A DNA stretch of 32,000 nt, taken from positions 1,860,001-1,892,000 of the forward strand of contig NZ_LT549890.1 in the NCBI RefSeq assembly GCF_900079115.1. Direction: 5' to 3'. The notes beneath the pieces were generated by a model. That model saw only the letters and a program-made list of their open reading frames with translations. It did no database searches and was not told the origin of the DNA. The position numbers and the translations under genes are program-made. This document shows positions 2,666-23,201 of the stretch, piece after piece; positions within the stretch are counted from its first letter, which is position 1, and each line of letters starts with the position of its first letter. This DNA comes from Saccharolobus solfataricus (GTDB taxonomy: Archaea > Thermoproteota > Thermoprotei_A > Sulfolobales > Sulfolobaceae).

Positions 2666-3064
2666 TTAAATCATTCTTCTGTCTATAATTGGTAACATGG
2701 GAATGTTGAATTTAGGAGTCGCACTACTTGGGCTCATAGCTTTCACTACTATGTATATCGACGTATAAACGCTAACGTTATTCAACTTAACAGCAATCCA
2801 GCTTTTTAGACAACAATGAGCTTCAGTTTGACCGTGAGATATTAAAGTGAAGTATGTCGAAGGTTCTACTCCTATTAGTTCTAAGTTTTGGCTATATCTA
2901 TATGCAGTAAAGCTTATGTTAATTATTGAGCCTGGTGAATAATACTTCCCTATTGTACAATAATATAAGCAACAAACCTTACCGCAAGGTAATTCGTATT
3001 TTATGTATACGTTAAAGACGTAAGATACTAGATGAGGAGTTAACGTTACGTTCACGTTGTCCAT
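2666..3064 (-). CDS. Hypothetical Cys-rich protein
   Basis: Support is the 132-aa ORF alone. It has several Cys clusters (CGKVCCLYYC, HCC). The frame stays open about 130 nt upstream of the ATG without another ATG. I recognised no motif. Confidence 0.25.
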   Translation of the reverse strand: MDNVNVTLTPHLVSYVFNVYIKYELPCGKVCCLYYCTIGKYYSPGSIINISFTAYRYSQNLELIGVEPSTYFTLISHGQTEAHCCLKSWIAVKLNNVSVYTSIYIVVKAMSPSSATPKFNIPMLPIIDRRMI

Positions 3065-4147: not shown

Positions 4148-5479
4148 GGGGCTACTGGGTATAGTTGTGTGAGAAAATATGTAAGCAGAAGGTTAAAAGT
4201 CTTCATCAAGACTCACCTGGAACCTTGAAGCGTGGAGTTGTTTGAGATGATATGAGTAATGCCTTATCACCGACATGGGCCTGAACTTCCAACGCGAATT
4301 ACTTTCATGGATCGAAACGTAGAGATAGACCTCCAAGGAGCGAAGAGAGGGAAAGTAACCTCCGAGCTCCTCCTCAAACCTAGCCAGGGTCAAGTTGAAA
4401 CTCTCCGACGTGTTATTAGTGTAGAGGTAGTGTCTAATCTCCCTGGGGAAGTTGAGAAAGGAACAATACTTGTCAGCAGCGTCAAGAAGCCTCTTGGCTC
4501 GGGCTGGAGAAAAGGGTTGGACAAGTTGGCTGAGGGACAATATAGCCTTCCTTCCCTCCTCCACGTTCCTGGAGGACTTTAGATCCCTAACTCTAATCAT
4601 TAGTTCCTCCTTCTCCTTGTCTGGGAGGACCCTCATGAGGTTCCTAACCATGTGTGTTATACAGAGCTGGTGTTGAGAGGAGGGAAAGAGCGTGGACACG
4701 ACGCGATCGAGTCCAGAGAAGTCATCGCTCACGATTACGTCAACCCTACTGACTCCCCTGCTTACAAGTCCGCTCAAGAAGGACTTCCAACCGTCCAAGT
4801 CCTCCCTATCCCTAACTTCGTAGTCCAAGACGAACTTATTCCCTTCTAAGTCAACTCCTATGGCAATGTAAATGGCTCTCTCCATGATCGACTCGCTGAT
4901 TCTGACCTTTACGATCTTCACATCGATGTAAAGGGCTAGGAGATCGTGAGGTAGTTCGCGGCTCTTGTATTCCTTGAGTTTGTTGGATATTCTCTCGGCA
5001 ACCCGATTCATTACGATCTCACTATACGGTATTCCCTTGGCTGCTAACACGGCCTTGACTTGACTTGGAGTCATGCCTGATAGAACGAGCTGCTGGAGGA
5101 AGTCCTCGTAATCTGGGCTGGTCCTCTCGTACTTCTCCGGAAGGATCTTGGGTCTGAAGCCACCCTTTCTGGTTCTCGGTACTCTGAGTCTTAATACTCC
5201 GTCTCCGGTTCCCAGATATCTGAAGTAGGTCCCGTTCTTGTGGTCGTCCTCAACTTCTAGGTAGGCTTCCCTCTCTTCCATCATGGCCTCTTGCAAGATT
5301 ATCTCCTCTATTTCCCTTAGGCTAACTCCTTCTTTGATTGCCTTTCTTATCTTTTCTCTTATTTCTTCCATTACCTTCATGGTATTACTCTCCCTTATGG
5401 TATTACCCCTTCCGGGGTTATTTTTACTTTTTGTCATTATTTTTCACCTTTTGCTACCACAACTATAACTGGTAGCCCC
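4148..5479 (-). mobile_element. IS256-family insertion sequence, exactly 1,332 bp (ISC1332-like by size and family), nested in IS copy 1
   Basis: The imperfect terminal inverted repeats are GGGGCTACTGGGTATAGTTGTG (4148-4169) and CACAACTATAACTGGTAGCCCC (5458-5479). They are flanked by a 9-bp direct duplication, CGTTTACTT, at 4139-4147 and 5480-5488. Confidence 0.85.
4193..5437 (-). CDS. IS256-family (Mutator-like) transposase
   Basis: The 414-aa ORF carries ...REAYLEVEDDHKNGTYFRYLGTGDGVLRLRVPRTRKGGFRPKILP...ALYIDVKIVKVR...VVSDDFSGL...QLCITHMVRNL...TNNTSESFN, the typical IS256 transposase pattern. Confidence 0.9.
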   Translation of the reverse strand: MTKSKNNPGRGNTIRESNTMKVMEEIREKIRKAIKEGVSLREIEEIILQEAMMEEREAYLEVEDDHKNGTYFRYLGTGDGVLRLRVPRTRKGGFRPKILPEKYERTSPDYEDFLQQLVLSGMTPSQVKAVLAAKGIPYSEIVMNRVAERISNKLKEYKSRELPHDLLALYIDVKIVKVRISESIMERAIYIAIGVDLEGNKFVLDYEVRDREDLDGWKSFLSGLVSRGVSRVDVIVSDDFSGLDRVVSTLFPSSQHQLCITHMVRNLMRVLPDKEKEELMIRVRDLKSSRNVEEGRKAILSLSQLVQPFSPARAKRLLDAADKYCSFLNFPREIRHYLYTNNTSESFNLTLARFEEELGGYFPSLRSLEVYLYVSIHESNSRWKFRPMSVIRHYSYHLKQLHASRFQVSLDEDF

Positions 5480-5832
5480 CGTTTACTTCGCTAGGGCTAC
5501 AAACCTCGACCTACCGAAGGGGGAGGTGTTGAAGTTGTACAACAAGGTGAGGGGTCCCATAGAGACCTCTTATAGGAACATTAAGGCTTTTCTCCCATTC
5601 ACCAGTTCCACCAAGTTCGTCTTCCGCACGTTGATCTTCGTGCTGGCCGTGGCCTTCTACTCCCTGTACACCGTGTTCAAGGGGGAGGTGAGGAGGGAGC
5701 AGTTCAGGATACTCCTAATACTCTTGTTTTCTGATGATCTATTCTATCTAAAAGATTTTCTATTTAAATCAATAGAACCGCTTATTAATAATATAGATTT
5801 ATTTTCAAGGAGGTGATTTTGGGTCTACCGTA

Positions 5833-7539: not shown

Positions 7540-7542
7540 AGC

Positions 7543-9465: not shown

Positions 9466-9698
9466 CCCTGGGGAGTCAGTCTCGGAGTTCTGGTCTGTTC
9501 TCATTGTCTAGTTGGCACGGCTTGTGTAATCGAGGTTGTAGTCAGGGTGGTGAATTGATGCTTAGATGATGAGCGTTAATGCATAAATCCTAGTGCTCGT
9601 TATTGCCTTACCAGCGCGGTTGTGGTTAGGGCTGGGTCTTGGTTGTATTGTGAGGTTGAGCATCTACCAGTGACCATGATTAGGGTGCCGAGAGACGC

Positions 9699-9965
9699 TT
9701 GGCGTGGTCAAACCCTGCATCCATCTCAGCAGTTGCTTGGTTTGTTTGGGCCGTAATGCTTAAAGGGTTTGTTTGTTTTGGTGGTGTTATGGGTGCGTTG
9801 AAGTACGTGGCCATTGGCGTTGTGGTTTTCGCCACCACTGTGTTTTACTACTACCGACACCGGGTGCCTGTGCAGTACGTGGGTTCACCCAGCGGTTATG
9901 AGGCATTTGTACCAAATGGTCAAGCAATAAATTATAATGGACATACAGATCCTGTGGTGATTTAA
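9699..9965 (+). CDS. Small putative membrane protein; the likelier start is ATG 9789 (MGALKYVAIGVVVFATTVFYYY...)
   Basis: The ORF has one clear hydrophobic helix. The listed start is TTG. The ORF straddles the GC-rich to AT-rich transition. Confidence 0.3.
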   Translation: MAWSNPASISAVAWFVWAVMLKGFVCFGGVMGALKYVAIGVVVFATTVFYYYRHRVPVQYVGSPSGYEAFVPNGQAINYNGHTDPVVI

Positions 9966-9982
9966 TACTAAGTAATGGAACT

Positions 9983-10432
9983 ATGATACAAAATGTGGTA
10001 TGGGATGGACAATATGCAGGTACAATAATTCAAAATCATTACCAAATAGTTCAATTGAATGATGAATGGGTAGGAAGAACCGACCCAGTGAATAATCAAC
10101 AATATGTAACTTTTCAAGATTTCTACGTGATCAAGGGTCAAGTACCAATTGAGAATGTAACAATAAATGGACAGACGTATTACGTGATAGATGCGGATAA
10201 AATAAACCCAGCGGACATCGCGGGATTTTTCACATACTGGAGATGGGTAAACAACTTCGTAACAGCAATAAACACACCAGGAACATATGCAGCAGTACTA
10301 CCAGGGAACTCACCAGTATTCACCTGGGAAAACCTAACAGGAGCAGTAGCATATGAAACGCGCAGGAACGGAATTATGGGTCTCGATTGGGGAATTGTAT
10401 TAACCCAATGGAACTATAATTCCATACGGTAG
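9983..10432 (+). CDS. Hypothetical N/Q/Y/W/T-rich protein
   Basis: This is a 149-aa ORF. A TTTAATACTAAG TATA-like element lies about 15-25 nt upstream of the ATG. I recognised no motif. Confidence 0.4.
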   Translation: MIQNVVWDGQYAGTIIQNHYQIVQLNDEWVGRTDPVNNQQYVTFQDFYVIKGQVPIENVTINGQTYYVIDADKINPADIAGFFTYWRWVNNFVTAINTPGTYAAVLPGNSPVFTWENLTGAVAYETRRNGIMGLDWGIVLTQWNYNSIR

Positions 10433-11794: not shown

Positions 11795-12388
11795 ATGACT
11801 AGTGGAGCTGGATGGGAAGAGCAGGTATTTTTACCAATAACAAATTCTATTTCTTCTGAGGATAATAATCAAATAAAAATTGGAAGTAGTGTTTCAATAG
11901 AATATAATCAGAATGGACAACATGTCAGTCAAATCGATGATAAGGGGCTTCATAATATCTTAGTACTTACAGGTTATGCAATAGATGAAAGTACCGGCGA
12001 ACTAGTACCTACTTTTGATCCTTGTGATTACGTAAAAGGAATTTTGATAAGTGGTAAAATTTTAAAAGGTAACCATTTTAAGATTATCGGCATTCCTTCA
12101 AACAAATTATATATAATTCGCAAGAAGGACGTGCATGGAAATATAACTTTTAGTCTTCCAATAAAAAACTTTAATACGGGAACCTATCAAGTAGATCTAA
12201 GAGATAAAGTCACATCGTTTGTAAGTTTAGACCGAGATGTCGCTAAGACAATTGTTGACAATGTTTTAGCGAAAATCTATGCGAAAATCTATAATAGTTT
12301 AAATAAAGAGCAAAAGGATAAGCTTTATAGGGATGTAGAAGAAATATTCAACTACTATTCAATAAAAAGTTTAAAATCGAATCCCTAA
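11795..12388 (+). CDS. cmr7: Cmr7-like Sulfolobales-specific Cmr subunit
   Basis: The 197-aa ORF is the first gene of the Cmr operon, directly upstream of cmr4. Its position and size match the Cmr7 subunit described for S. solfataricus/S. islandicus Cmr complexes. It has no RAMP motifs. Confidence 0.55.
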   Translation: MTSGAGWEEQVFLPITNSISSEDNNQIKIGSSVSIEYNQNGQHVSQIDDKGLHNILVLTGYAIDESTGELVPTFDPCDYVKGILISGKILKGNHFKIIGIPSNKLYIIRKKDVHGNITFSLPIKNFNTGTYQVDLRDKVTSFVSLDRDVAKTIVDNVLAKIYAKIYNSLNKEQKDKLYRDVEEIFNYYSIKSLKSNP

Positions 12389-12401
12389 GATATATTGCTA
12401 A

Positions 12402-13328
12402 GTGATTATAATGACTTATTACACTTTTGTTAAACCTTTTTTTATTAAGGCAGTAACTCACTTGCATGTAAGTTCTGGAACATCTGTAGAAGAGGAAGTA
12501 GATTTACCTTTTCAAAGAGATGAGTTAAACTATCCCACAATATTTGCATCTAGTCTTAAGGGTGCAATAAAATCGTTCCTACTAAAGGAATATAGTAATG
12601 CAAGAGAAATAATTTATAAGGTTTTAGGTTCTGACGAAAATCCTGACGAAGCCTCTCTAGGATCTTTTTTGGATGCAGTTCTTTTTGCTATTCCTGCCAG
12701 AAGTATAGGCGTTAGCGGTCTCGATGAAGCATGGGTTTATGTTACCACGTATGAACTTCTCAGGAAGGTAAAATCACTTCTAGAATCGATGAACACTTTA
12801 TCCGCTACACAATTTACCTCTCTTCTGGACGCTATTAATAACATTCTCCAAGAGAGTAAAAATTTGATAATTTCTGATAATGCGGCTAGTGTGATCTTAA
12901 ACGAGGACTTTTACGTAGAATTGAGTAATATTCAAAACGAGTATATTCAGTCTCTTTTAGGAGACATGCTAATTGAGAATTCAACGTATAACCAGAGTAA
13001 CCAAAATTCTCAGTCTCAAGGAAACCACTTAGTAAAGCCTTTAATAGTCCTTAAGGATTCAATAGGTAGGGAAGTGATTAATAGGTCATTAATAAGAGTG
13101 AGAAGGATAAAAATTAAGAGAAGTAGTAAAACCGTGGAAGAAGGTGGTTTATGGTCTGAAGAATATGTTCCAGTGAACTCATTGTTCTTTTCCTCTTTTT
13201 TAGCTAGAGGAAGTAAGGATACCGCATATTTTGCTGACTGTATTTTAAGGAAAACAAGATACTTAATTTTAGGAGGTAAGGAAACTATAGGTAAAGGAAT
13301 TGTTGAATTGAGGTGGTTAAATGACTGA
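12402..13328 (+). CDS. cmr4: Cmr4 (Cas7-family RAMP backbone subunit)
   Basis: AVTHLHVSSGTSVEEEVDLPFQRDELNYPTIFASSLKGAIKSF is the Cmr4 N-terminal RAMP motif. The C-terminal G-rich loop reads LILGGKETIGKGIVEL. Confidence 0.85.
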   Translation: MIIMTYYTFVKPFFIKAVTHLHVSSGTSVEEEVDLPFQRDELNYPTIFASSLKGAIKSFLLKEYSNAREIIYKVLGSDENPDEASLGSFLDAVLFAIPARSIGVSGLDEAWVYVTTYELLRKVKSLLESMNTLSATQFTSLLDAINNILQESKNLIISDNAASVILNEDFYVELSNIQNEYIQSLLGDMLIENSTYNQSNQNSQSQGNHLVKPLIVLKDSIGREVINRSLIRVRRIKIKRSSKTVEEGGLWSEEYVPVNSLFFSSFLARGSKDTAYFADCILRKTRYLILGGKETIGKGIVELRWLND

Positions 13329-13791
13329 AGTACAAGAGGAGAAAGATTATAAACTAGCTATTGAGGCATTTAACCTAGTCTATAATGCTCTAGATAAGAA
13401 GGCTAGAGAAAAATTTAGGAGTAGGGCAAGGGATATGGTGGAGGAGATATATACTTCTGGGTTCATCCCCACGTTGTTTTACATAATATCAAAAGCTGGG
13501 TTAGAGAATAATAATGATAAACTAACCGCGTTATTAAATTCTCCCTCTTCAAAGAGCATTGATCTGGGCAGTAGCGATGAGGCTTCTTATATGGCCTATT
13601 TGTTTGTCATTCTGTACTATCTGTCTGAGAGAAACATTATAAATAAAGAGTTTCTAATTAATAAACTCAAGAATAACCGTTTAGAACTCATAGACAAGTT
13701 GTATGAGTTGTCTCCTATAATTTCCGCCAGGATAAAGAGGTATTTAATGGCAATAAAGAGATTGGCTGAGGCTTTAATAGAGGTGAGGTAA
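13321..13791 (+). CDS. cmr5: Cmr5 (type III-B small subunit)
   Basis: This 156-aa helical protein lies between cmr4 and cmr1. It overlaps the cmr4 stop by 8 nt. Confidence 0.75.
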   Translation: MTEVQEEKDYKLAIEAFNLVYNALDKKAREKFRSRARDMVEEIYTSGFIPTLFYIISKAGLENNNDKLTALLNSPSSKSIDLGSSDEASYMAYLFVILYYLSERNIINKEFLINKLKNNRLELIDKLYELSPIISARIKRYLMAIKRLAEALIEVR

Positions 13792-15195
13792 ATGGAGGAG
13801 TTGTTAATGTCTTTTAAGCTAAAGGCTATTTATCCGTTAACCGGAGGTTATAATAGGCATAGTATAAACGAATTTTATGAAGAGAACGTTAGGCCTACTG
13901 AAATTAAGGGTTTATGGAGGTGGTGGAATAGGGTTTTATTCAATACAGTAAGTTATGTGAAAGAAGGAAAGCTTTACACTTACGACTCTATAGATAGGCT
14001 ATTTGAGGACGTTTTCGGAAGTGAAAACAAGAAGTCTGCAGTAAGGTTAGAGGTGATAACTGATGAGGGAAGCGATAATCATTTTGAACTATCTAATGTT
14101 GAGTTAGATAATGTGATAGATTGCCTAAAGGCAAATAGGGAAGAAAAAGTGAATTTAGACTTTAGAGATAATACGCTAATTATTGAAATAGAAGGCTCAA
14201 CTAAAATTCCCATTTCTTTTAAATCTAATTTAGATATAGATAAAATTAAGGATCTAGTATATAAGAATAAACTTCTTAGCTTTGAGCTCTTAGGTTTTAA
14301 GAGTATTAAAATAGATACAAAGATTTCTGATAAGGAAGTAATTAAGGAAATCTTGCGTGATCTAATTACAAATTATTTAGAATACTTTAATATTAAGCAA
14401 GAAGTTACATTCACTCTTAATATTTATCTAGATAAGAGTCTTAAGCATAAGCAAAACTTTGATGCTAAGCTTAAGTTTGCGCTACATAGTCTATTAGTTT
14501 TTATACTGTTAGGAGGAATTGGAAGGAAAACAAGTAGAGGATTTGGTGGTTTATCAATAGTTAATGCAGAATGTCACGACGGATTATGTGGTGAAATATA
14601 TGGAATAGTAAATAATATGGAGTCAGAAAAAGAAAAAAAGGATCTCGCTACAGTTCTTCCAAATATCATTTTTTCGCAAACTATTGAACAATATTTTAGT
14701 GAGCTAATAAATAATGAAAGCTATAAATTGAGATCATGGAATAATAACTCAGATTTTTTTGTTTATTATTTTATAAAAGATATCAATATATTGAGAATTA
14801 ATAGAATAGACACTAACGTTAACAGAAATGGGATAGAAAATATCTTAAATAGGATATCTAATGAACTATCAGCCTCTGGTAACTGCCTTAAAGACCTCAT
14901 AATGCAAGAAATGAGAAGGAGAGCCTTTGCTTTAGCATTTCTTGGAAATAGAAAATTTAGAAATATTCATGAAATTTATCCTAGAATATTGGAATTTCTA
15001 TACGCTAATTACATCAAAAGAGAATTTGTAAATTTGATAGGAAAAGAAAGAAGGTTATCCAACTTAAGGTTTAAGATTCTTGAGATCAATAATACTTATT
15101 ATATAATTTCATATTTACTTTATTCCAGTTATCTTAAAGATCCAAATTCGAGCATAAAGGATACGTTATATCAGTTTGCTAGATGTGTGATTTAA
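13792..15195 (+). CDS. cmr1: Cmr1 (RAMP)
   Basis: RPTEIKGLWRWWNRVLF is the hallmark Cmr1 motif. The G-rich loop reads LLGGIGRKTSRGFGGLSI. The start abuts the cmr5 stop (TAAATG). Confidence 0.8.
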   Translation: MEELLMSFKLKAIYPLTGGYNRHSINEFYEENVRPTEIKGLWRWWNRVLFNTVSYVKEGKLYTYDSIDRLFEDVFGSENKKSAVRLEVITDEGSDNHFELSNVELDNVIDCLKANREEKVNLDFRDNTLIIEIEGSTKIPISFKSNLDIDKIKDLVYKNKLLSFELLGFKSIKIDTKISDKEVIKEILRDLITNYLEYFNIKQEVTFTLNIYLDKSLKHKQNFDAKLKFALHSLLVFILLGGIGRKTSRGFGGLSIVNAECHDGLCGEIYGIVNNMESEKEKKDLATVLPNIIFSQTIEQYFSELINNESYKLRSWNNNSDFFVYYFIKDINILRINRIDTNVNRNGIENILNRISNELSASGNCLKDLIMQEMRRRAFALAFLGNRKFRNIHEIYPRILEFLYANYIKREFVNLIGKERRLSNLRFKILEINNTYYIISYLLYSSYLKDPNSSIKDTLYQFARCVI

Positions 15196-15196
15196 A

Positions 15197-16051
15197 ATGA
15201 AAATGAGTATAAGTACTCATTTACCAAGAATTTTAGACACATTAAATAGAAATAATATTAATCTATTCTCGGCACTGAGTTTAACCAGCATAGTATACAA
15301 TAACTTTGGAGAATTTCTCTCGAATAAACAGTCATATAGTGCTAATAACCCACTATTAAAGTATCAAATTATAATCCTAAAAGATAAAAATAAAACTAAG
15401 GATGTCGAAGAGAAGAAAAGCCTATTTAAGAGGGAAATAGCTGAACTTGTCTCAAGGAACTTTAAATTAGAGGGCGAAAAAGTAAAGAAATATTTTGATA
15501 ATCTCAAAGAAATACTAAAGTCGTTAAAATACACGATAGTAGACTTTGAAATAACTACTAGGACGAGGGCTTTAATAGGAGTTTCAACTTCTTTAGGTAA
15601 GCTGATTTTTGACTCTGGGATTTCTTTCGATCCATACATGAACTTGCCTTACATACCTGCATCTGAAATTAAAGGTATTGTGAGAAGTTATATTGAGGAT
15701 AAACTAGGCGAGCAAGATGCTGAGGAAATTTTCGGTAATGAGGAAATGGAAGGTAATGTAAACTTTACAGATGCCTATCCTACTAGGCCTGAGAATTTCT
15801 TGTTTGTACCAGACGTAATTACACCTCATTATAATAAGAAGAAGTCTGAGGCTGATGCTGAGCCTAAGCCGGCTATTCATTTAACTATAGCTCCTAAAGT
15901 TTCGTTTAGATTTTTAATTTACTATAAGAGGGAAGATGTAGGAAAACCAATTTGTGATTCCTTACCTCTGGTGATTATGAAAGGTTTAGGTGCTAGATCT
16001 TCTGTTGGATATTCCTTATTTGAATTAAGTAAGATAGAGGTGATTAGATGA
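15197..16051 (+). CDS. cmr6: Cmr6 (RAMP)
   Basis: It carries PYIPASEIKGIVRSYIE and a C-terminal GLGARSSVGYSLFEL G-rich loop. An ATGA overlap links it to cmr2. Confidence 0.8.
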   Translation: MKMSISTHLPRILDTLNRNNINLFSALSLTSIVYNNFGEFLSNKQSYSANNPLLKYQIIILKDKNKTKDVEEKKSLFKREIAELVSRNFKLEGEKVKKYFDNLKEILKSLKYTIVDFEITTRTRALIGVSTSLGKLIFDSGISFDPYMNLPYIPASEIKGIVRSYIEDKLGEQDAEEIFGNEEMEGNVNFTDAYPTRPENFLFVPDVITPHYNKKKSEADAEPKPAIHLTIAPKVSFRFLIYYKREDVGKPICDSLPLVIMKGLGARSSVGYSLFELSKIEVIR

Positions 16052-19000
16052 GTACTGATGATAATTCTAGAGAAGAATTCTTAAACTACAAAATTATGGC
16101 ATTACTTCATGATCCTCCAAATAAGGCGTGGGTGATAACAAGTCGTGCACATAATCTAACAGTGCAGTTAAGAAGCGTAAGAGCTAGGAAAAGTCATGAA
16201 AGAGTGGCTAAGTATATAATCAATCAATTATTCGGCGATATTAATTCTAAAACAGTTGATAATGCAGACAAATTAGCTAGTTCCATAGATAGATATCTAG
16301 GTAGTATCGTATATAAAGAATATAGCTTATTCAGAAATAGATCAATATTCTTAAAGAACATACTTCTATCAAATATTCAAAGGGATGTAGGCAATTTATT
16401 TCCTAAAGATAAATCTAAACTAGATAATTTAATATCAGAATATAAAAAGCTATTAAATGTTACAAATACAACTAATCTTAATATTTTGAAATATCAATTG
16501 TTTTATCTAATTTATGAACTAATATGGATAGATTCTAGATATGAAAATACTCCTGCAGAGACTAGAAACCCTACTCACACAATATTTGACCATTTATATG
16601 CAACTGCTGCAATGATGAACTGGATATTTAGTCTAGAGAAAGAAGCAAAAGGTTACTTACTAGGAATAGATACTATAGGAGTTGCGGACTTCATAAGCAA
16701 GGGAAAGAAGACTAGGGACTTATGGATTTCTAGTTATTTAGTGTCAGCCCTACTCTGGTACGTAATTACCTGGTTTATTGAGGAGTACGGCCCTGACGTT
16801 ATACTTTTCCCCTCGTTAAGGTTTAATCAATTTTATGCGTTTTACCTTTTAGAAAAATTAAGAAAAGAAAAAATATCAGAGGATGTTATAGATGAAATAA
16901 AGGAGTTAATAACTAAGTACATATTTAATGGTGACGATCTGTTTGAGAAATTGGAAATCCCGCCCTATCCGATAATACCTGGTAGGATTACGTTAATCTT
17001 ACCGGGGTTAATAAGGGAAGGTGAAGAATATACGCAAGTTCCAGACGATAATTACTTCATTTCTAAGGTAAAGGAGAGATATAATGAAGGTTGGCGTAAG
17101 CTAATTGAGGGATTAAAGTGTTATTCTGAACTAAAGAGGGAAGATGGTTTCTGGAATTTAGTATGTAGAGTGTTAAAACTGACGGAGGATTTACTTCAAA
17201 CTACTCCTTTAAACATTCGTGTGAAACAAGTGAGTGTAACTAAGGATGAGATATTTAACAATAGCAAATTACGCTCAGATTCGTGGAAGATTTACGACAA
17301 TAAATATCGTCAATTAGTTAGTGAGTTTAAGAAGAGTAAATTAGTGAAAGTTACTCCCGAGTCACGCTTAAAATTATTTGAATTAACTAAATTTGACAAG
17401 TTACCTCAAATTGGTGAGAAATCTAAAAGAGGTTACGAATTCTGTACTTCATGTGGTGTTTTGCCAGCGGTAATTATAATGCCCAAGGAAGACGAATTCG
17501 AGAAAAAATTAATTGAGCTCGGAATTGCGAGAGACGAGAAAGACGTAAGATCTATAAAGAATATGATTTCACCAGGTGAGAGGCTTTGCCCATGGTGTTT
17601 AGTGAAAAGGGCCTTAGGTGCTGAGCCCAGACTTATGAGAATTCTTTTGCTAGGAGATCTTTGCAGCGTTGAGAAGATTGTAAATGAAATCGTTAGTAAA
17701 GATGTTAAGATAGAAATTCCGTCAACTAGTGATATTGCATCGATTAAAACTTTTGAGGAAATGATTGAGAAGAAAAACGAAATCTGTGAAGATCTAAAGG
17801 AAGAGGAAGTTTGCGAGAAGCCTAATGAGAGTATGCTTTCTATGTGGCAGCGGTTTAATAAAAATTACTATACTGGGATAAATCTTACTATAGATCCTGA
17901 GGAGTATTGGTTTAGTGAAAAGAGGAGGAGATATTATTTCTCTCTCTTTAGAAGACATAGAATAACTTTTCCATCACCTTATTACGCTTTAGTTAGGGCT
18001 GATAGCGATTACTTAGGGGATTTGTTAGAAGGTAAGTTAACTCCTTATTTGGCTGGAATTATTGATTCTGGAGATTATGCTAATATTAGTGAGAAGAAAG
18101 AGGAAGTAAATAAATTATTAGAGGAATATTTAGTAAATGCCGGAAGTGGGCCAATAGTAGATTACGTTAAGACAGTATTAGAGTGTATAAGGGGAAATTT
18201 AAATAAGTGTTCATGTGCAGTGAAAATTTATTCTAACGAAGTTGCCGAAGTAATGTTTAGGGCAAATCGTCTGTTACGTAAAAAACTCGAAAAGATAGAC
18301 GTAGAGAGAGAAGTCGAAAACAGTCTTAAATATTTTAGAACTATTTTGAAAGAGGGAAGGATAATAGTTACTCCCGCTTGGCATGTATCGATTTCTTCAG
18401 CACTCAATAGGGGGCTTCTCGTAGAATTAGAATTGATTAATAAACATAAGGGATTTGTAATTTATGCGGGGGGAGATGATTTATTGGCAATGTTGCCAGT
18501 AGATGAAGTTTTAGATTTTGTTAAGGAGAGTAGGAGGGCATTTGCAGGAGTTAGTACTGGAAGATTAGGTAACATGTGCTTAGAGAATGGATTCGCTAGA
18601 ATCAATAATGCTTACTATCCTTCATTACCTATAGTAGGCAGATCGTATTCTGTAATTATAGCACATTATGCCGATCCTCTATTTTTCGTCATAAATGATT
18701 CTTATAATCTTTTAGAGGAGGGGAAGGAAATGATAAGATATAGAGTAATGTATAACGGAGAATATAAGGACGCTAAGAAGGATGTTGCAATATTTAGATA
18801 TCAAGGTTTAACATCAGTAATTCCATTATCGTTAAAGAGACCTATAGTTAACTCTGTGAGTGACTTTAATGAAATAGCCTCTATCATAGACTTAATATTA
18901 GAATTAAAGAAGAGGATCGATGAGGGTCATATTTCCGTGTCCTTACTTTATGATTATGAGGAGTATAAACACTTAATCGTAGCTAGTGATGAGAAGTATT

Positions 19001-19185
19001 TAACTGAATTCTTAGTAAAGGATTGGATAAAAAGAAATTCTCTTAGAAAACACGTTGAGTTTACTATAGACGAGAAGTTATACGGTGTTAGGTTAACTAT
19101 TGAAAATTATCCGATTAAAATTCCTAATGACCTAATTTCTAACATTGTTTATACTCTTAGAATAATTTACGGTGGCGAGAAGTGA
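16048..19185 (+). CDS. cmr2: Cmr2 / Cas10 large subunit
   Basis: The 1,045-aa product has the ALLHDPPNKAW N-terminal Cmr2 motif and NPTHTIFDHLYATAAMM. A Cys cluster reads CTSCG...CPWC. An intact GGDD cyclase motif (VIYAGGDDLLAMLP) is at nt 18469-18480. Confidence 0.9.
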   Translation: MSTDDNSREEFLNYKIMALLHDPPNKAWVITSRAHNLTVQLRSVRARKSHERVAKYIINQLFGDINSKTVDNADKLASSIDRYLGSIVYKEYSLFRNRSIFLKNILLSNIQRDVGNLFPKDKSKLDNLISEYKKLLNVTNTTNLNILKYQLFYLIYELIWIDSRYENTPAETRNPTHTIFDHLYATAAMMNWIFSLEKEAKGYLLGIDTIGVADFISKGKKTRDLWISSYLVSALLWYVITWFIEEYGPDVILFPSLRFNQFYAFYLLEKLRKEKISEDVIDEIKELITKYIFNGDDLFEKLEIPPYPIIPGRITLILPGLIREGEEYTQVPDDNYFISKVKERYNEGWRKLIEGLKCYSELKREDGFWNLVCRVLKLTEDLLQTTPLNIRVKQVSVTKDEIFNNSKLRSDSWKIYDNKYRQLVSEFKKSKLVKVTPESRLKLFELTKFDKLPQIGEKSKRGYEFCTSCGVLPAVIIMPKEDEFEKKLIELGIARDEKDVRSIKNMISPGERLCPWCLVKRALGAEPRLMRILLLGDLCSVEKIVNEIVSKDVKIEIPSTSDIASIKTFEEMIEKKNEICEDLKEEEVCEKPNESMLSMWQRFNKNYYTGINLTIDPEEYWFSEKRRRYYFSLFRRHRITFPSPYYALVRADSDYLGDLLEGKLTPYLAGIIDSGDYANISEKKEEVNKLLEEYLVNAGSGPIVDYVKTVLECIRGNLNKCSCAVKIYSNEVAEVMFRANRLLRKKLEKIDVEREVENSLKYFRTILKEGRIIVTPAWHVSISSALNRGLLVELELINKHKGFVIYAGGDDLLAMLPVDEVLDFVKESRRAFAGVSTGRLGNMCLENGFARINNAYYPSLPIVGRSYSVIIAHYADPLFFVINDSYNLLEEGKEMIRYRVMYNGEYKDAKKDVAIFRYQGLTSVIPLSLKRPIVNSVSDFNEIASIIDLILELKKRIDEGHISVSLLYDYEEYKHLIVASDEKYLTEFLVKDWIKRNSLRKHVEFTIDEKLYGVRLTIENYPIKIPNDLISNIVYTLRIIYGGEK

Positions 19186-20126
19186 TGAAGAGAGTGTTAA
19201 TAAAACCATTAGAACCGTTAATGTTTAGAAGTCAGGGGGAATTTGAGCCCTTAATTACCGGTTCCCACACTGCAGCACAGTCTTTAATAATACCAAGACC
19301 TTCTACAATTGCCGGAATGTTAGGTTATATATTATTTAACAAGAGTTCTGGGACTGGGGACTGGTTATCGGACTTAACGAATTTGCTAGATACTATATAT
19401 GGAACTTTCATAGAGACTAATGGAGAGTATTTATTTCCTCTCAGAATGGGCAATCATTTAGCTTTAGTAGACCAACAACATCTTATAAATCTACCTATTT
19501 TGCTAGAAAAAGAGTACGAACAACGGGAGAAGGGGATTTATGAACTTTTTTATGATAAAAATAAACTATTCCAGATCATAAATCATCAAGATAGGATAGG
19601 AATAAGTATAGATAAAAGTACCAGAACTGTTAAGGAACATTATCTTTACTCAGCTAGATATTTAGCATTTAAGAAGGAGGTTAATTACGTAATATTCATA
19701 GATAATGATGCGATAAGTGATAAGATAAATGGTAAAATAGTGAACTTTGGAGGAGAAAATAGAATAGCTAAGCTTGAAGTTGATGATTATAAAGTGGATA
19801 CAAGTATTGAAGAAGAGTATTACTTAACACTATCTCCTATCTTAATTCCCGATGAAGCTTTAGATGATTTACTTGATAACATAAGCGATTATGTTACAAT
19901 GGGTAAGGTGGATAAGATAAGCTTAGGATTCGATATTGCTAATACTAAAAGAAAAGAGATGCTAACGGCTATTTTAGAGGGTAGTATAGTCAAGAGAAGT
20001 ATTATTGATTTTATTAAAAAGGAGATTAACAACAATTTGCTAGATAGGTTTACTAAATATGAAAAAATAGGATATAACACTCTTATGAATCTTTGCAAGT
20101 TAGCGTTCAGAAAGATATTAAGCTAA
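19182..20126 (+). CDS. cmr3: Cmr3 (Cas5-like)
   Basis: The N-terminus VLIKPLEPLMFRSQGEFEP is typical of Cmr3. The gene overlaps the cmr2 stop and is last in the operon. Confidence 0.8.
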   Translation: MMKRVLIKPLEPLMFRSQGEFEPLITGSHTAAQSLIIPRPSTIAGMLGYILFNKSSGTGDWLSDLTNLLDTIYGTFIETNGEYLFPLRMGNHLALVDQQHLINLPILLEKEYEQREKGIYELFYDKNKLFQIINHQDRIGISIDKSTRTVKEHYLYSARYLAFKKEVNYVIFIDNDAISDKINGKIVNFGGENRIAKLEVDDYKVDTSIEEEYYLTLSPILIPDEALDDLLDNISDYVTMGKVDKISLGFDIANTKRKEMLTAILEGSIVKRSIIDFIKKEINNNLLDRFTKYEKIGYNTLMNLCKLAFRKILS

Positions 20127-20231: not shown

Positions 20232-20720
20232 TTAAGGGTCATTCAAGGTTTTCACAATTTTCTGAAAAACTTCTAATTTATAGACCGTATTTAAGTCTAT
20301 GTTTCTTATACGTTTAGGTAAGTCACTCTTTTCATATCTATCATGCGTTCTCAAATATTCTAACGGATTGTTCTCTTGTGGTGCTAAGAGTATTTCAATA
20401 TGAGGATTGAAAACAATGATACAAACTCTATTCATATCTACACCATTTCTTTTTAACATATCTTTTATCCTATTTTCCAGTATTTGGGAGTCTTCATTAT
20501 CGCTGTCCACAAAGATCATGATTTTGTCGTATCCTTTAAAAATGGAACTTTTTACAATTCTTACTGTCTTTGCAGAGATTATATTTCCTTTTCCGCCCAT
20601 AGAATGACAATCTAATTTGATTTCATTTTCTATCTTTTTGTTCTCTTCAAGTTTTCTGATTAATTCAGCGATTGCACTGCAACCGTATTTATCTTCTGTA
20701 ATTGCTAGAATTATTTTCAT
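20232..20720 (-). CDS. Small Toprim-like (DUF4276/RloB/OLD-C-terminal-like) protein
   Basis: The 162-aa product has an E...DxD...E pattern: ILAITEDKYG, then IMIFVDSDNED, then FNPHIEILL. It lies 10 nt downstream of the ATPase gene and is evidently co-transcribed with it. Confidence 0.55.
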   Translation of the reverse strand: MKIILAITEDKYGCSAIAELIRKLEENKKIENEIKLDCHSMGGKGNIISAKTVRIVKSSIFKGYDKIMIFVDSDNEDSQILENRIKDMLKRNGVDMNRVCIIVFNPHIEILLAPQENNPLEYLRTHDRYEKSDLPKRIRNIDLNTVYKLEVFQKIVKTLNDP

Positions 20721-20730
20721 TATTTTTCAC

Positions 20731-21822
20731 TTAGTATAATAACCATTCACTTAACAAGATACCGTTCTCAGTCAACTTTTCCTTCAATTTCTCTGGCTCT
20801 TGTACTTTATTAACTTTAGTCTCTCCTCTTTCTTTATCAAGAATTATTATTTCTGAAGGATCCATGAAGTCGATAATTAGTGGCGAATGTGTAGTTGCTA
20901 TGAACTGTGAGTCGGAATAGCGCATTATATCAACTAGTCTTTCAATGTACTTAAGGTGGAGGGAGTTCTCTATTTCGTCGATAATGATTGTCGACATTTT
21001 TAACAGATACACAGCTATAATGATTGTCAACATTTTTATAAAACCGTCAGGCACTGATGCGGGCAGTAAAATCAGCTCTTTGTTGTTTTCACTCTTTTCA
21101 ATGAAATGTAGTCTTATATTTCCGTCCTCAGTGAAAACCGGTCTTAGAGAGATGTTGTTTTCAACTAAGAAATCATAAACTTGTTTAGTCTCATTAATTC
21201 TAGACAAGTTATTGCTTATCACCTTAACTAACCCGCGACCGTTTTCGTCTAACGCTTCTGGGAATGTGAAATGGACTGGAGATACTGCTATTTGAGGAAC
21301 TATTCTAAACACTCCTACGTCATTTAGGAAATTCGTCATAAAATTCAAGAGTTCAGGTGGAAGGGTGAAATTGAGATTATATGCTATTATAAAAGGTTGT
21401 GCAAAAAATAAGTTAAATACACTTAAATTATCAGGAATTGTCATCTCTTTATTTTCATATCTTATTACGTTGCCTCTTCTTTCCATACTGTAAGAGTCAA
21501 AATTTATAATTTCCTTTTTTATCTGCAACTTATTTAGCGAAATCTCATAATGGTAATCTTTACCCTTATATTCACCATCGATCTCAAAGGAGATGTCCAA
21601 ATTCTCATCTTGCATAAATACAACGTTCTTGTAATCTCCCCATCGAATGAAAGGATAAGGCGGGTAAGATAGAGGTCTGATAAGTTGCTTTAGAAAACTA
21701 AAAGCGTCGACAAGATTAGTTTTACCAGAACCGTTAGGCCCTACAACGATACTTACTTTCTCAAACTCAAACTCGCTGTCACGGTAACTCTTGAAGTTCT
21801 TTATCTTTAATCTTTTTATCAC
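20731..21822 (-). CDS. ABC/SMC-RecF-like ATPase (AAA_15/AAA_21-type)
   Basis: The start is GTG. The N-terminus reads MIKRLKIKNFKSYRDSEFEFEKVSIVVGPNGSGKTNLVDAF, which includes Walker A. Walker B/D-loop is TIIIDEIENSLH and the H-loop is FIATTHSP. Confidence 0.8.
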   Translation of the reverse strand: MIKRLKIKNFKSYRDSEFEFEKVSIVVGPNGSGKTNLVDAFSFLKQLIRPLSYPPYPFIRWGDYKNVVFMQDENLDISFEIDGEYKGKDYHYEISLNKLQIKKEIINFDSYSMERRGNVIRYENKEMTIPDNLSVFNLFFAQPFIIAYNLNFTLPPELLNFMTNFLNDVGVFRIVPQIAVSPVHFTFPEALDENGRGLVKVISNNLSRINETKQVYDFLVENNISLRPVFTEDGNIRLHFIEKSENNKELILLPASVPDGFIKMLTIIIAVYLLKMSTIIIDEIENSLHLKYIERLVDIMRYSDSQFIATTHSPLIIDFMDPSEIIILDKERGETKVNKVQEPEKLKEKLTENGILLSEWLLY

Positions 21823-22010
21823 ATGATAAAATAAGAAATCTCGTTTAAAACTCTTGCTTTGTTGATGACTTTACGCTTTAATATTTTCTGGCATTAAGCT
21901 CTAGGGTTTGGGCTTCATAGGATTTCATAATATTTAATATCAATCCTCAGCCCTTGGACTTCACCAGAGTCACGGGGACATTGTCCCCTTCACACCCCTC
22001 CGCCCCTTTA

Positions 22011-23201
22011 CGGTAGACCCAAAATCGTATTATGAAAAATAATTCTGACAGAATAATATCGATTCATGATAGATAACAGGATTTATATGAGTATTAAGAA
22101 TTCAGTTGAAGAAAGGTTTAAGGTGAGGGAGATGTGGTATTACCACGTGAGTAAGTGAGATGGTAACACCGGTACTCCCTCACCAAACATTCAACAAATA
22201 GGATATAAATTACTTTCCATGTTGAACTTCCAAGGGGAAAAGGTAGAGAAGGTAGCGAAAACTCTCATCCCCGCGTGTTTGTGGAACAACTCTGTAGAGA
22301 ACAAGTCCAGAGCGTATGACGTATCCCCACAGACCGTGAGGAATTACGTAGAGAAACAAGGGATGGAAGTGATTGAAAAGCTATTGGAAAGAGCTAGGAA
22401 AATATCCTTGAAGGTACTGAAGGGAGTCAAGGAGATAGATCTTTCAATAGACTGGACAACCAAGACGTGGTATGGGAAACCAGTGAAAGGGAGCTCTGAA
22501 AAAGGAAACTCGTGGAACTACGCAACAACCAAGTATAAGGGGAAAGTACTTTTACTTGCCTTTATTCCGCAAGTGAACGGTATGACTAAGGACGAGATAG
22601 TGAAGGTTCTTGTGGAGCAAGTAATGGCAATGGGATTCAAGATAAGGTTGATAACTCTTGACGCTGGTTTCTACACAGTTGATGTGCTCAATTTCATTTC
22701 ACAGTTTAAGTATATAGTTGCTGTGCCTGTTGGGGATGTTAAGGTGTATGAGGAGTTTGACGGGGATTACAAGACTAATAGTAAGAGGCATAGGAGGGAT
22801 GAGCAGGTCAAGTTCAGGCTTCTCGTGTACAGCAAGGGAAAAGTGAGGAGAAAGAGTCTTGTTTATTTTGCTAGGGCTACTAACCTAGACCTATCCAAGA
22901 GGGAAGTGTTGGATTTATACAATAAGGTAAGAGGTCCCATAGAGACCTCTTATAGGAACATTAAGGCTTTTCTTCCATTTACTGGTTCTACTAAGTTTGT
23001 TTTCCGCACGTTGATCTTCGTGCTGGCCCTTGTACTCTATATACCATATTCAAGGGGGAGGTGGGGAGAGAGGAGTTTAGATTATTATTAATTCTTTTAT
23101 TTCCTGATTTATTCAATCCAGAGAATTTTACATTTAATCTAGTAGATACACTTATTTACACTATAGATTTATTTTTAAGGAGGTGATTTTGGGTCTACCG
23201 T
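22011..23201 (+). mobile_element. DDE-type insertion sequence, copy 2 (about 1.19 kb), uninterrupted
   Basis: It has the same 16-17-bp terminal inverted repeats as copy 1. It is flanked by a 4-bp direct repeat, TTTA, at 22007-22010 and 23201-23204. If the shared T at 23201 belongs to the duplication, the element is 22011-23200. Confidence 0.85.
22219..23091 (+). CDS. DDE transposase (IS4/IS5-superfamily-like) of IS copy 2
   Basis: The 290-aa product contains DWTTKTWYG, LDAGFYTVD and RGPIETSYRNIKAF. Compared with copy 1, the last ~25 codons are in a different frame (...LYIPYSRGRWGERSLDYY versus ...FYSLYTVFKGEVRREQFRILL...). This indicates a small indel near the 3' end, after the catalytic E. 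Confidence 0.8.
   Translation: MLNFQGEKVEKVAKTLIPACLWNNSVENKSRAYDVSPQTVRNYVEKQGMEVIEKLLERARKISLKVLKGVKEIDLSIDWTTKTWYGKPVKGSSEKGNSWNYATTKYKGKVLLLAFIPQVNGMTKDEIVKVLVEQVMAMGFKIRLITLDAGFYTVDVLNFISQFKYIVAVPVGDVKVYEEFDGDYKTNSKRHRRDEQVKFRLLVYSKGKVRRKSLVYFARATNLDLSKREVLDLYNKVRGPIETSYRNIKAFLPFTGSTKFVFRTLIFVLALVLYIPYSRGRWGERSLDYY

Follow-up and report, generated by a model that had tools for sequence, protein, structure and literature searches.

What are the two genes that lie between the Cmr operon and the CRISPR array of Saccharolobus solfataricus, and do they have anything to do with either? We analyzed the stretch of 32,000 nucleotides that includes them (contig NZ_LT549890.1, positions 1,860,001 to 1,892,000), which we will call the window. 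The S. solfataricus window is 100% identical to CP050869.1. A first-pass annotation had described open reading frames of 363 and 162 amino acids that are separated by 10 nt; both are in our list of open reading frames, at coordinates that agree. Both genes are on the minus strand. The larger gene (20731..21822) has a GTG start and the smaller gene (20232..20720) has an ATG start. The spacer at the operon junction (GTGAAAAATA, 20721..20730, minus strand) is 10 nt and includes a short Shine-Dalgarno-like GTGA. By reading the sequence, we also noticed a TATA-like box on the minus strand (TTTTAAA, 21844..21850), 22–28 nt upstream of the GTG of the larger gene. Because of the known layout of promoters in Sulfolobales, this box is likely to be the archaeal promoter of a leaderless transcript of both genes. 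In S. tokodaii, which has a related cassette, the DNA homology with the window starts exactly at this box (window position 21850).

The pair is convergent to cmr3 (19182..20126, plus strand; Pfam Cas_Cmr3), which is 105 nt away. On the far side of the pair from cmr3 are an IS transposase (22219..23091; DUF4322 and DDE_Tnp_1) and the CRISPR array, which starts near 23221 and has ~89 repeats. So the placement that had been proposed, convergent to cmr3 and with the Cmr operon on one side and the array on the other, is borne out by the Cas_Cmr3 match and by mapping the array. The conflict-type genes in the window include a PIN toxin, IS elements, a STAND NTPase, Cmr, the CRISPR array, and type I-A genes. 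A scan of the window with Rfam gave no matches.

By its motifs and its profile matches, the 363-amino-acid protein is an ABC/SMC-head-type ATPase, as had been proposed. It matches AAA_21 (E = 1.2e-32), SMC_N (7e-17), and AAA_15 (3e-16) from Pfam. The three motifs that had been quoted are all present: the Walker A motif GPNGSGKT (amino acids 28–35), the Walker B/D-loop IIIDEIENSLH (279–289), and ATTHSP (309–314), which contains the H-loop TTHSP. There is also a signature-like SVPDG. We aligned eight orthologues and more distant relatives from Sulfolobales, an Asgard MAG, a WOR-3 bacterium, and a plasmid (where the relative is embedded in BREX), and found that Walker A, the DG of the signature, the DE of Walker B, and the TTHSP of the H-loop are invariant. 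The Sulfolobales clade lacks an insert of ~90 amino acids that is found in the distant relatives. The nearest solved relatives are TsOLD, PtuA, and the heads of Rad50, and the best match in the PDB to the sequence of the N-terminus is TsOLD.

Among the PADLOC models, the ATPase matches HEC-01A (PDLC04176; 1.8e-37), with amino acids 2–351 aligning to positions 3–355 of 371. The ATPase also matches AbiLi (1.3e-35; profile positions 49–265 of 326), PDC-M25A (4e-33), mad3, and the AriA model PDLC02980 (4e-32; amino acids 24–318 aligning to positions 2–304 of 304). The match to AriA seems to reflect AAA_21 in general and not AriA in particular, because both the aligned residues and the length of the profile are the same as in the alignment to Pfam's AAA_21. 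The ATPase scores 69.9 bits against NCBIfam's MAD3, whose cut-off is 420.

The 162-amino-acid protein does not reach any curated threshold in our scans with Pfam, NCBIfam, and PADLOC. Its best match in Pfam is to DUF3226 (E = 0.0018; 18.6 bits, with a cut-off of 27). At E ≤ 1, the Pfam scan found no match to DUF4276 (PF14103), RloB (PF13707), or DUF4435; Toprim_OLD was not found in the Pfam scan, nor AriB in the PADLOC scan. It has weak matches to the HEC-01B models PDLC04206 (7.9e-5; amino acids 6–58 only) and PDLC04202 (8e-4), to MAD4 (4e-4), to AbiLii (0.006; amino acids 43–88), and to Toprim_2 (0.19). Against NCBIfam's MAD4 it scores 20.5 bits, with a cut-off of 160. When the protein or a profile of its family was compared to sequences from the PDB, we found only noise (PUF repeats and Arf GTPases; E > 0.1).

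To find relatives of the small protein, we used a profile that was made from Sulfolobales sequences only. An exhaustive search of 1.84 billion cluster representatives yielded about 56 clusters of relatives of ~160 amino acids. A repeat search with the family alignment, which was word-indexed, returned only the narrow family again (22 proteins). Ten of 46 relatives match Pfam's DUF4276 (E ≤ 0.01) and three of 46 match RloB, and the alignments to both profiles are colinear. One relative exceeds the gathering cut-off for DUF4276 (P0012, 32.4 bits versus 30.2) and another exceeds the gathering cut-off for RloB (P0021, 35.9 bits versus 31.5). In PADLOC, the commonest match is mad4 (18 of 46). At least 10 relatives match a HEC-01B model (up to 10 of 46 for a single model), 6 of 46 match AbiLii, and some match ATPase-Toprim_I-B. 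In the literature, DUF4276 and RloB proteins are described as nucleases of the Toprim superfamily, with a glutamate after β1 and DxD after β3, and MAD4, HEC-01B, and AbiLii are assigned to this superfamily too (PMC12065111). Judging from these profile matches, the small protein is in a fringe subfamily of the DUF4276/RloB superfamily, with no formal membership in a Pfam family, and we annotate it as a putative DUF4276/RloB-like nuclease of the Toprim superfamily. Its size, which had been described as unusual for a Toprim partner, is not so exceptional: the profiles for DUF4276 and RloB have 192 and 195 positions, so at 162 amino acids it is only ~30 shorter. A full-text search of the literature for SSO1993, SSO1994, or SSO1995 (locus tags from strain P2) and for DUF3226 found nothing.

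The first-pass annotation had picked out by eye a Toprim-like pattern of E, DxD, and E in the motifs ITEDKYG (amino acids 7–13), FVDSDNED (70–77), and NPHIEILL (105–112). These positions turn out to be the invariant columns of the 46-member family alignment: E9 is conserved in 43 of 43 sequences without a gap at that position, and D72 and E109 are conserved in 46 of 46. Position 74 is aspartate in 37 of 46 relatives and glutamate in another 5. Y129 and K131 (in the motif YEKxxLP) are invariant or nearly so, even though the relatives are 20–68% identical. In the loop after β2, where Toprim domains have a conserved glycine, G43 is glycine in 27 of 46, and the length of this loop varies. As catalytic residues, we predict E9-D10, D72-x-D74, E109, and K131. 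For comparison, the hallmark of Toprim domains is a conserved glutamate in the loop between β1 and α1 and DxD after β3 (PMC6755086, PMC12065111), and the catalytic set of BpOLD is E400, D455xD457, E508, and K562 (PMC6755086). We believe that the finding of this pair is more than chance because of the E-value of the match to AAA_21 (1.2e-32) and because the acidic positions that were chosen by eye are invariant.

The AlphaFold 2 model of the small protein from a deep alignment has a pLDDT of 97 and a pTM of 0.91 (with a shallow alignment, the pLDDT is 82). In this model, a βαβαβαβ core (β1 at 2–8, β2 at 34–40, β3 at 66–72, β4 at 99–104) is followed by helices; E9 is just past β1, D72xD74 is at the end of β3, and E109 is in the helix after β4. 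In Toprim domains, the four strands of the core form a parallel sheet of order 2-1-3-4. The top match among predicted viral structures (BFVD) is a RloB-like protein (TM 0.60, probability 1.0), with primases and one topoisomerase lower in the list. Foldseek comparisons of both models to the PDB found weak and generic three-layer α/β matches (TM ≤ 0.47), with no Toprim in the top 50.

That the two genes form an operon was checked at other loci as well. The ATPase gene is followed by the small gene in 11 of 11 genomic contexts, which are from Sulfolobales, an Asgard MAG, and a WOR-3 bacterium. This strict conservation as an operon is what the first-pass annotation required. At the other loci, the genes are 10–13 nt apart or they overlap by 14–29 nt. 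Across loci, the identities of the two proteins drop together (80/67, 80/71, 76/64, 58/40, and 42/31%). The pair is missing from most Sulfolobales genomes, and the sites where it is found are variable regions. Furthermore, one of the partners is disrupted in 5 of 9 sequenced versions of the cassette. In S. tokodaii, the small gene has a 1-nt deletion and has lost its start (in four assemblies); the cassette from Stygiolobus has a 71-nt insertion; and the ATPase is frameshifted in L007, in L009, and in the P2 reference. The module is evidently dispensable, and it may be decaying. Elsewhere, its neighbors include PIN/VapB, HEPN-MNT, TnpB, a phage integrase, and Cas3. The nearest relatives of the ATPase on plasmids (22–28% identity) are in cassettes that are embedded in BREX-1. 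We also used tblastn to compare the small protein to phages, and its relative P0022 to plasmids; there were no matches, and therefore no evidence of the cassette in any known virus or plasmid of archaea.

Is the location next to Cmr conserved? Among the 11 contexts, the pair adjoins cmr3/cas10 in S. solfataricus strains and on one Stygiolobus contig only. The WOR-3 homologue is ~2.4 kb from cas3. In S. tokodaii, L007, L009, Sulfolobus sp. E5-1-F, the Asgard MAG, and L023, the pair is away from CRISPR-cas. Being next to Cmr is thus not conserved across the family. Scans with Pfam, NCBIfam, and PADLOC did not identify CARF, SAVED, or any other sensor of cyclic oligoadenylates in either protein. 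And in a survey of accessory proteins of type III systems, the ATPase clusters that are described in the main text do not include this family (PMC6546367).

The first-pass annotation viewed the pair as an ATPase with a small Toprim partner that follows the logic of OLD, PARIS, and AbiL. The profile matches, the conserved residues, and the operon support that logic. They do not support PARIS or OLD as close kin, as there is no DUF4435, no Toprim_OLD, and the domains are not fused; the closest systems are HEC-01 and MAD3/MAD4.

HEC-01 (Hma-embedded candidate 01 in PADLOC; Payne et al., 10.1101/2024.01.29.577857) has an ABC ATPase of ~370 amino acids and then a small stand-alone TOPRIM protein, and like our pair, it is embedded in other immune loci. 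The ATPase from the window spans the HEC-01A model from end to end, and many relatives of the small protein match HEC-01B. However, the family of the small protein is shorter than HEC-01B (~160 amino acids versus 176–219 profile positions), and the window protein's own match to HEC-01B is weak and partial. Also, this family is mostly archaeal and thermophilic, and the pair adjoins Cmr and CRISPR instead of lying within Hma. The sole representative of HEC-01 that has been tested, in E. coli, did not protect against the phages that were tried (10.1101/2024.01.29.577857). MAD3 and MAD4, which are components of MADS, the methylation-associated defense system of P. aeruginosa, are similarly an AAA_21-type ATPase and a DUF4276-type partner. 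But the pair is free-standing, with Cmr genes, IS elements, and the array as neighbors instead of a methyltransferase and MAD6-8, and both proteins are far under the equivalog cut-offs (69.9 versus 420 bits and 20.5 versus 160 bits).

PARIS shares the design of ATPase and Toprim split across two genes, and its ATPase scaffold frees the Toprim nuclease upon sensing a viral protein (PMC11464382). However, AriB is a 35-kDa TOPRIM tRNase with DUF4435, while the small protein has 162 amino acids and lacks DUF4435; and AriA is 55 kDa and has coiled-coil insertions (PMC11464382), while our ATPase is a minimal head of 363 amino acids. The OLD family (P2 Old and TsOLD in class 1; GajA and BpOLD in class 2) also combines an ABC ATPase with a Toprim domain, and the predicted residues E9, D72xD74, E109, and K131 mirror E400, D455xD457, E508, and K562 of BpOLD. 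But OLD proteins are single polypeptides of 500–600 amino acids, and the pair comprises two open reading frames without a match to Toprim_OLD, a helical insert domain, or a UvrD-like helicase. AbiL (AbiLi and AbiLii) and RloA/RloB likewise have an AAA_21 ATPase and a small Toprim-like partner, although the matches of the window's small protein itself to AbiLii and RloB are marginal. Also, RloB is typically tied to type I restriction-modification loci, and there is none here. Finally, PDC-M25 includes the closest ATPases from plasmids, and it too is placed within another immune operon (BREX-1). Its second component, PDC-M25B, is a partner of 245 amino acids with no match in Pfam, and the small protein does not match it. 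We rejected PDC-M25B as a relative of the small protein because it belongs to a different family.

[quoted passage not shown] On this reading, it is not PARIS, it is not OLD proper, and it is not a Cmr accessory. Its place between the Cmr operon and the array would reflect the tendency of such cassettes to settle in immune loci, and not cooperation with Cmr. For the physical complex, the trigger, the substrate, and the defense phenotype, we infer the following scheme. The cassette's own TATA box would give a leaderless mRNA for both genes, which would be translated as a unit. The ATPase would dimerize or oligomerize via its nucleotide-binding heads and bind the small nuclease, either to keep it inactive or to position it. 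A cue from a virus or a plasmid, such as a protein of foreign origin or a nucleic acid with an aberrant structure, would alter the ATP-bound state. The nuclease would then be licensed to cut nucleic acid with its two-metal site (E9/D10, D72xD74, E109, K131). The cut might be nicking or degradation of DNA, as for OLD and Gabija, or cleavage of tRNA, as for PARIS. Either the invader would be destroyed or the infected cell would be arrested.

We also considered that the pair might be an accessory or back-up of the type III-B Cmr system, functionally coupled to it, for instance by being switched on once Cmr has been triggered or inhibited. This would account for why it lies between cmr3 and the array, and it fits with the adjacency to cmr3/cas10 in S. 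solfataricus strains and on one Stygiolobus contig, as well as with the WOR-3 bacterial homologue that is ~2.4 kb from a cas3 gene; furthermore, ATPase cassettes inside other immune systems are a known pattern (10.1101/2024.01.29.577857). However, the majority of the homologous cassettes are away from CRISPR-cas, and in the window the pair runs toward cmr3 with what looks like a promoter TATA box of its own. Neither protein has a cOA sensor domain that Pfam, NCBIfam, or PADLOC can recognize, and where the main text of PMC6546367 describes clusters of accessory ATPases, this family does not come up. Coupling to Cmr therefore seems doubtful, and given the unconserved linkage and the missing CARF and SAVED domains, we rejected a Cmr accessory as the main explanation. 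A related proposal is that archaea have in this pair a working system for abortive infection or nuclease defense, whose embedding next to Cmr is functional, so that it acts as a second line when viral anti-CRISPRs or other factors disable type III-B. PARIS, which senses anti-restriction proteins, would be a parallel for a system at Cmr that fires as a second line, but we give this proposal just an outside chance.

A different kind of explanation is that the pair is a selfish addiction cassette, similar to a toxin-antitoxin system, or simply a decaying remnant. It would spread horizontally and persist because the nuclease is toxic unless the ATPase keeps it in check, and there would be no antiviral benefit. 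In Pfam, the description of AAA_21 reads "putative AbiEii toxin, Type IV TA system," toxin-antitoxin genes and IS or TnpB elements are often nearby, the family is patchily distributed (a search of 1.84 billion representatives yields very few clusters of it), and inactivating lesions are common (in S. tokodaii, Stygiolobus, L007, L009, and the P2 reference). However, intact genes with invariant catalytic residues are found across distant archaea and bacteria, which argues for purifying selection on an enzymatic function. Also, defense roles have been demonstrated for the related MAD3/4, PARIS, Gabija, and OLD. Abortive-infection systems and toxin-antitoxin modules also do not exclude each other. 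We view a purely selfish cassette as unlikely, but it deserves to be taken seriously. We see much less reason to believe that the small protein lacks catalytic activity and acts as an adaptor or a regulator, its flavodoxin-like α/β fold being generic and its likeness to Toprim superficial. It is true that Foldseek's matches in the PDB are generic (lumazine synthase, low-molecular-weight phosphatases, TIR, and small GTPases) and that the window protein is under every curated threshold. But E9, D72, E109, Y129, and K131 do not vary among the 46 relatives, which are 20–68% identical, the matches to the DUF4276 and RloB profiles are colinear, a RloB-like protein is at the top of the predicted viral structures, and every time the gene is paired with an AAA_21 ATPase, as with DUF4276, RloB, and AbiLii; so we consider an adaptor to be very unlikely. 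Even harder to sustain is a housekeeping role in DNA repair or recombination, by analogy to RecF (an ABC ATPase) and RecR (a Toprim fold) or to machines of the Rad50 type. The N-terminus of the ATPase does match profiles for RecF (TIGR00611, 3.6e-12), Rad50, and SMC proteins, and the model of its partner suggests a Toprim-like fold. However, these matches are far under the curated cut-offs and mostly cover the Walker A region only; the pair is missing from most Sulfolobales genomes, is disrupted in several, and lies in variable regions; and the small protein keeps a full predicted metal site of the nuclease type, without the HhH and zinc-finger parts of RecR.

If the pair is indeed a conflict cassette, then this class of gene pair, which is already catalogued as anti-virus defense in bacteria, has a reasonable candidate member in S. 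solfataricus. Few defense systems beyond CRISPR-Cas, restriction-modification, and Argonautes have been reported from the Thermoproteota (PMC12988326), and it appears that no ATPase-Toprim pair from archaea has previously had a functional test. Genetic tools are available for the model organism S. solfataricus, whose viruses (SSV, SIRV, and STIV) are well studied, and the mutational targets are clear: K34 in Walker A of the ATPase, and E9, D72/D74, E109, and K131 of the nuclease. If a role in defense holds up, this would be the first ATPase-Toprim system in a crenarchaeon that can be manipulated genetically and has model viruses. It would also be the first stand-alone functional example for the HEC-01 or DUF4276 class, because HEC-01 itself failed in E. 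coli. And it would provide a thermostable and minimal system (363 plus 162 amino acids) for studying how a Toprim nuclease comes to be licensed by an ABC ATPase. If it does not hold up, then the pair is one more decaying gene pair of this island.

The segment with the pair had also been described as bracketed by IS elements. This is literally true: besides the IS copy at 22219..23091, there is a second and related copy at ~3260-5831, which is split by a Mutator-family IS. We considered that the segment might be a composite transposon, and we rejected this idea because the two IS copies are diverged (only 81–85% identical) and one of them is interrupted.

Two adjacent genes on the reverse strand encode an ATPase of 363 amino acids (20731..21822, with a GTG start) and a protein of 162 amino acids (20232..20720, with an ATG start); in the mechanical ORF list, they are 10 nt apart. 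On one side lies a complete type III-B cassette on the forward strand (Cmr7, Cmr4, Cmr5, Cmr1, Cmr6, Cas10/Cmr2, and Cmr3; 11795..20126), whose last gene, cmr3, is convergent to the small ORF across a 105-nt gap. On the other side lies an IS transposase (22219..23091), and beyond it a CRISPR array of about 89 repeats (CTTTCAATTCTATAGTAGATTAGC) starts near 23221 and is followed by the type I-A genes Csa5, Cas7/Csa2, and Cas5a. The ORF and domain map thus bears out the placement given in the first-pass annotation (convergent to cmr3, between the Cmr operon and the array), and all six motifs that it quoted are found in the translations of the two ORFs. The window, from Saccharolobus solfataricus, matches CP050869.1 at 100% identity and the reference of strain P2 (AE006641.1) at 99.985%.

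The ATPase matches AAA_21 (1.2e-32), SMC_N, and AAA_15 in Pfam. In PADLOC, it matches HEC-01A end to end (1.8e-37), as well as AbiLi, PDC-M25A, AriA, mad3, NsnB, and PtuA, while its NCBIfam matches (MAD3, PtuA, RecF, and Rad50) are all sub-threshold. The nearest solved structures, by sequence, are TsOLD, PtuA, Rad50, and SMC heads. We aligned the ATPase with a plasmid relative and with its Sulfolobales, Asgard MAG, and WOR-3 bacterial orthologues. Walker A (G28-N30-S32-G33-K34), a signature-like DG (G260), Walker B (D282-E283), and the H-loop (T310-T311-H312-S313-P314) are invariant. The protein is a minimal ATPase of the ABC/SMC-head type and looks catalytically competent.

The small protein by itself is nearly an orphan. 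Its own matches are to DUF3226 (0.0018, below the cut-off), Toprim_2 (0.19), HEC-01B (7.9e-5), AbiLii (0.006), and MAD4 (4e-4), with no match among PDB sequences. A word-indexed search turned up no more than six close relatives, of which the named ones are from Sulfolobales (Sulfurisphaera tokodaii and Stygiolobus). When a profile built from these was compared exhaustively with 1.84 billion representatives, it retrieved 56 clusters, almost all with lengths of 150–175 amino acids; members with a named source belong to Metallosphaera, Sulfolobus sp. E5-1-F, an Asgard MAG, and a WOR-3 bacterium, each of them annotated as hypothetical. Among 46 relatives scanned with Pfam, 10 matched DUF4276, 3 matched RloB, 2 matched DUF3226, and 1 matched Toprim. 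Two relatives exceed the gathering score: P0012 for DUF4276 (32.4 bits vs. 30.2) and P0021 for RloB (35.9 bits vs. 31.5), with colinear matches over the 192- and 195-position profiles, respectively. The PADLOC model mad4 was matched by 18 of the 46, and HEC-01B models, PDC-M38B, AbiLii, and ATPase-Toprim_I-B were matched as well. DUF4276 and RloB are described in the literature as nuclease domains of the Toprim superfamily that have the canonical Glu and DxD (PMC12065111).

An AlphaFold2 model of the small protein, made with the 46-sequence alignment (pLDDT 97, pTM 0.91), has β1 (2–8), α1, β2 (34–40), α2, β3 (66–72), α3, and β4 (99–104), followed by five short helices. E9 comes directly after β1, D72xD74 is at the end of β3, E109 is within the helix after β4, and K131 is within the helical tail. 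Across the 46 members, D72, E109, Y129, K131, and L134 are each conserved in all 46; K51 is conserved in 42; E9 and D10 are conserved in 43 and 42 of the 43 non-gap sequences; and position 74 is D in 37 and E in 5. Given these counts and the placement in the model, the three acidic positions that had been picked by eye in the first-pass annotation are exactly the invariant ones. E9, D72xD74, E109, and K131 are arranged like the residues of the OLD/RNase M5 type of two-metal site, which in BpOLD are E400, D455xD457, E508, and K562 (PMC6755086).

The fold search is the weak point of the Toprim assignment. Against the PDB, both models of the small protein found just generic three-layer α/β folds (TM at most 0.47), with no Toprim protein among the top 50. 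Against predicted viral structures, the best match was an RloB-like protein (TM 0.60, probability 1.0, E 1.5e-3); primases and a topoisomerase ranked lower. We consider membership in the Toprim superfamily to be well supported by the protein's sequence and residue pattern but only modestly by the fold search.

The first-pass annotation read the pair as an ABC ATPase with a Toprim-type partner, and this is essentially right: the small protein is a putative stand-alone nuclease of the Toprim superfamily, and the pair is a split analogue of OLD. We are confident of this architecture and of the enzyme classes. The pair is not OLD proper, as the two domains are not fused and the test for Toprim_OLD failed. 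Nor does it belong with PARIS, as the test for DUF4435 failed. Its place is instead with HEC-01 and MAD3/MAD4, which are pairs of an ATPase with a partner of the DUF4276/RloB type. The partner had been described as unusually small; it falls some 30 residues short of the lengths of the DUF4276 and RloB profiles, which makes it compact but not exceptional. What is new is an archaeal and essentially unannotated pair; the class itself was already known. By analogy, we propose that the ATPase would be an ATP-dependent sensor or regulator that licenses the small protein, a two-metal nuclease, and that the licensed nuclease would degrade the invader or cause abortive infection. That the pair works in this way, as a defence or conflict system, seems somewhat probable.

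In every context that we examined, an AAA_21/AAA_15 ATPase gene is immediately upstream of the small gene, so the operon is conserved. These contexts were the window, other S. solfataricus assemblies, two Stygiolobus contigs, S. tokodaii (four assemblies), three metagenomic or sequencing-run contigs (L007–L009), Sulfolobus sp. E5-1-F, a WOR-3 bacterium, an Asgard MAG, and a further contig beside a phage-type integrase. The genes are 10–13 nt apart or overlap by 14–29 nt. Furthermore, the identities of the ATPase and the small protein to the window's pair fall in step (80/67, 80/71, 76/64, 58/40, and 42/31%), and therefore the two genes evolve together. A TTTTAAA box is present 22–28 nt upstream of the ATPase's GTG, nucleotide homology to the S. 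tokodaii cassette begins exactly at this box, and the intergenic spacer holds a short GTGA that is Shine-Dalgarno-like. We infer from these signals that the transcript is probably leaderless and bicistronic.

Among these contexts, S. solfataricus and one Stygiolobus contig are the only ones where the pair adjoins Cmr. The WOR-3 copy has a cas3 gene 2.4 kb away; other copies have PIN/VapB, PaREP1, TnpB, HEPN-MNT, an integrase, or ordinary metabolic genes as neighbours. CARF and SAVED domains are absent from both proteins. A systematic survey of type III accessories (PMC6546367) describes ATPase clusters in its main text, and this family is not one of those it mentions. The ATPase's nearest plasmid relatives are in two-gene PDC-M25 cassettes inside BREX-1 operons, in the pglX/pglZ or brxC/pglX interval (L017 2501-4369 on Acinetobacter plasmid pNDM1_010055 and L018 2501-4427 on a Moellerella plasmid); they have a different partner, of 245–249 amino acids, with no Pfam match. 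ATPase cassettes of this type are known to settle within other immune loci or next to them (10.1101/2024.01.29.577857). This habit is the best explanation of the pair's place beside Cmr and the array.

Nine versions of the cassette have been sequenced, and in five of them one gene is damaged. In P2, one extra C near 20859 (GGATCCCTT vs. GGATCCTT) frameshifts the ATPase at amino acid 322, and a 328-amino-acid product is annotated; CP050869.1 and several read-set assemblies agree with the window, with an intact ORF of 363 amino acids. The extra C may reflect an error in sequencing or a genuine difference between strains. In S. tokodaii and related assemblies (L003–L006; L004:7870-8384), the small gene has a 1-nt deletion in an A-run (near window position 20625) and its ATG is gone, a lesion shared by four independent assemblies. 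The N-terminal 35 residues, including E9, are thereby removed; the protein is annotated at 127 amino acids, without the catalytic Glu, and the ATPase is intact. In a second copy in Stygiolobus sp. CP850M, the small gene is split by a 71-nt insertion (L002:10256-10326) that ends in 12-bp inverted repeats, has a repeated AGGAT on its flanks, and folds into a hairpin that is strong (−16.7 kcal/mol, z = −6.4). It resembles a miniature inverted-repeat element or some other tiny mobile insert of that sort. The ATPases of L007 and L009 are frameshifted. (In the low-coverage Stygiolobus contig L001, the small ORF is listed at just 114 amino acids; in tblastn, the full 162 residues align in a single frame.) Such frequent lesions fit a conflict module that is costly or toxic, and dispensable. 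They also keep alive the alternative that the pair is a decaying selfish cassette.

We also noticed other mobile or candidate defence genes nearby. Two IS copies (DUF4322/DDE transposase; 3260-5831 and 21997-~23150), 81–85% identical and with both transposase ORFs on the + strand, flank a segment with a STAND candidate, Cmr, and the pair. The left copy is broken by a Mutator-family IS (transposase at 4193..5437, − strand). Homology to Stygiolobus ends at 21996, the end of the right copy, 175 nt upstream of the ATPase's start. Just upstream of the Cmr operon (5833-9465, + strand) are ORFs of 568 and 640 amino acids. The former has a STAND-type P-loop (Pfam nSTAND3, 8e-7; PADLOC mad8/LmuB P-loop matches) and the latter has no match whatever. 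GC content is 44–49% at about 3000-10000, vs. 29–36% across the Cmr and pair region. These ORFs look like a horizontally acquired candidate STAND NTPase defence pair. At the island's left edge is a PIN-domain (VapC-like) toxin gene (1192-1569, − strand; Pfam PIN, 8.7e-14), and the S. tokodaii cassette is likewise flanked by PIN/VapB pairs. Positions 1-1008 are 76% identical to a TnpB-like gene (Cas12f1-like_TNB) of S. tokodaii (L004:5647-6664), which is directly upstream of its ATPase-nuclease pair; thus the same family of IS200/605-type elements is near the cassette in both genomes, here 20 kb off. Finally, the CRISPR array contains a 31-nt direct repeat (24697-24792; GCTACAACTCTATAGAAGTGCGGG...), with copies 94% identical and 65 nt apart, which coincides with irregular spacing (double or triple steps of 129, 128, and 194 nt in the D1 family) and suggests a duplicated spacer and one or more degenerate repeats.
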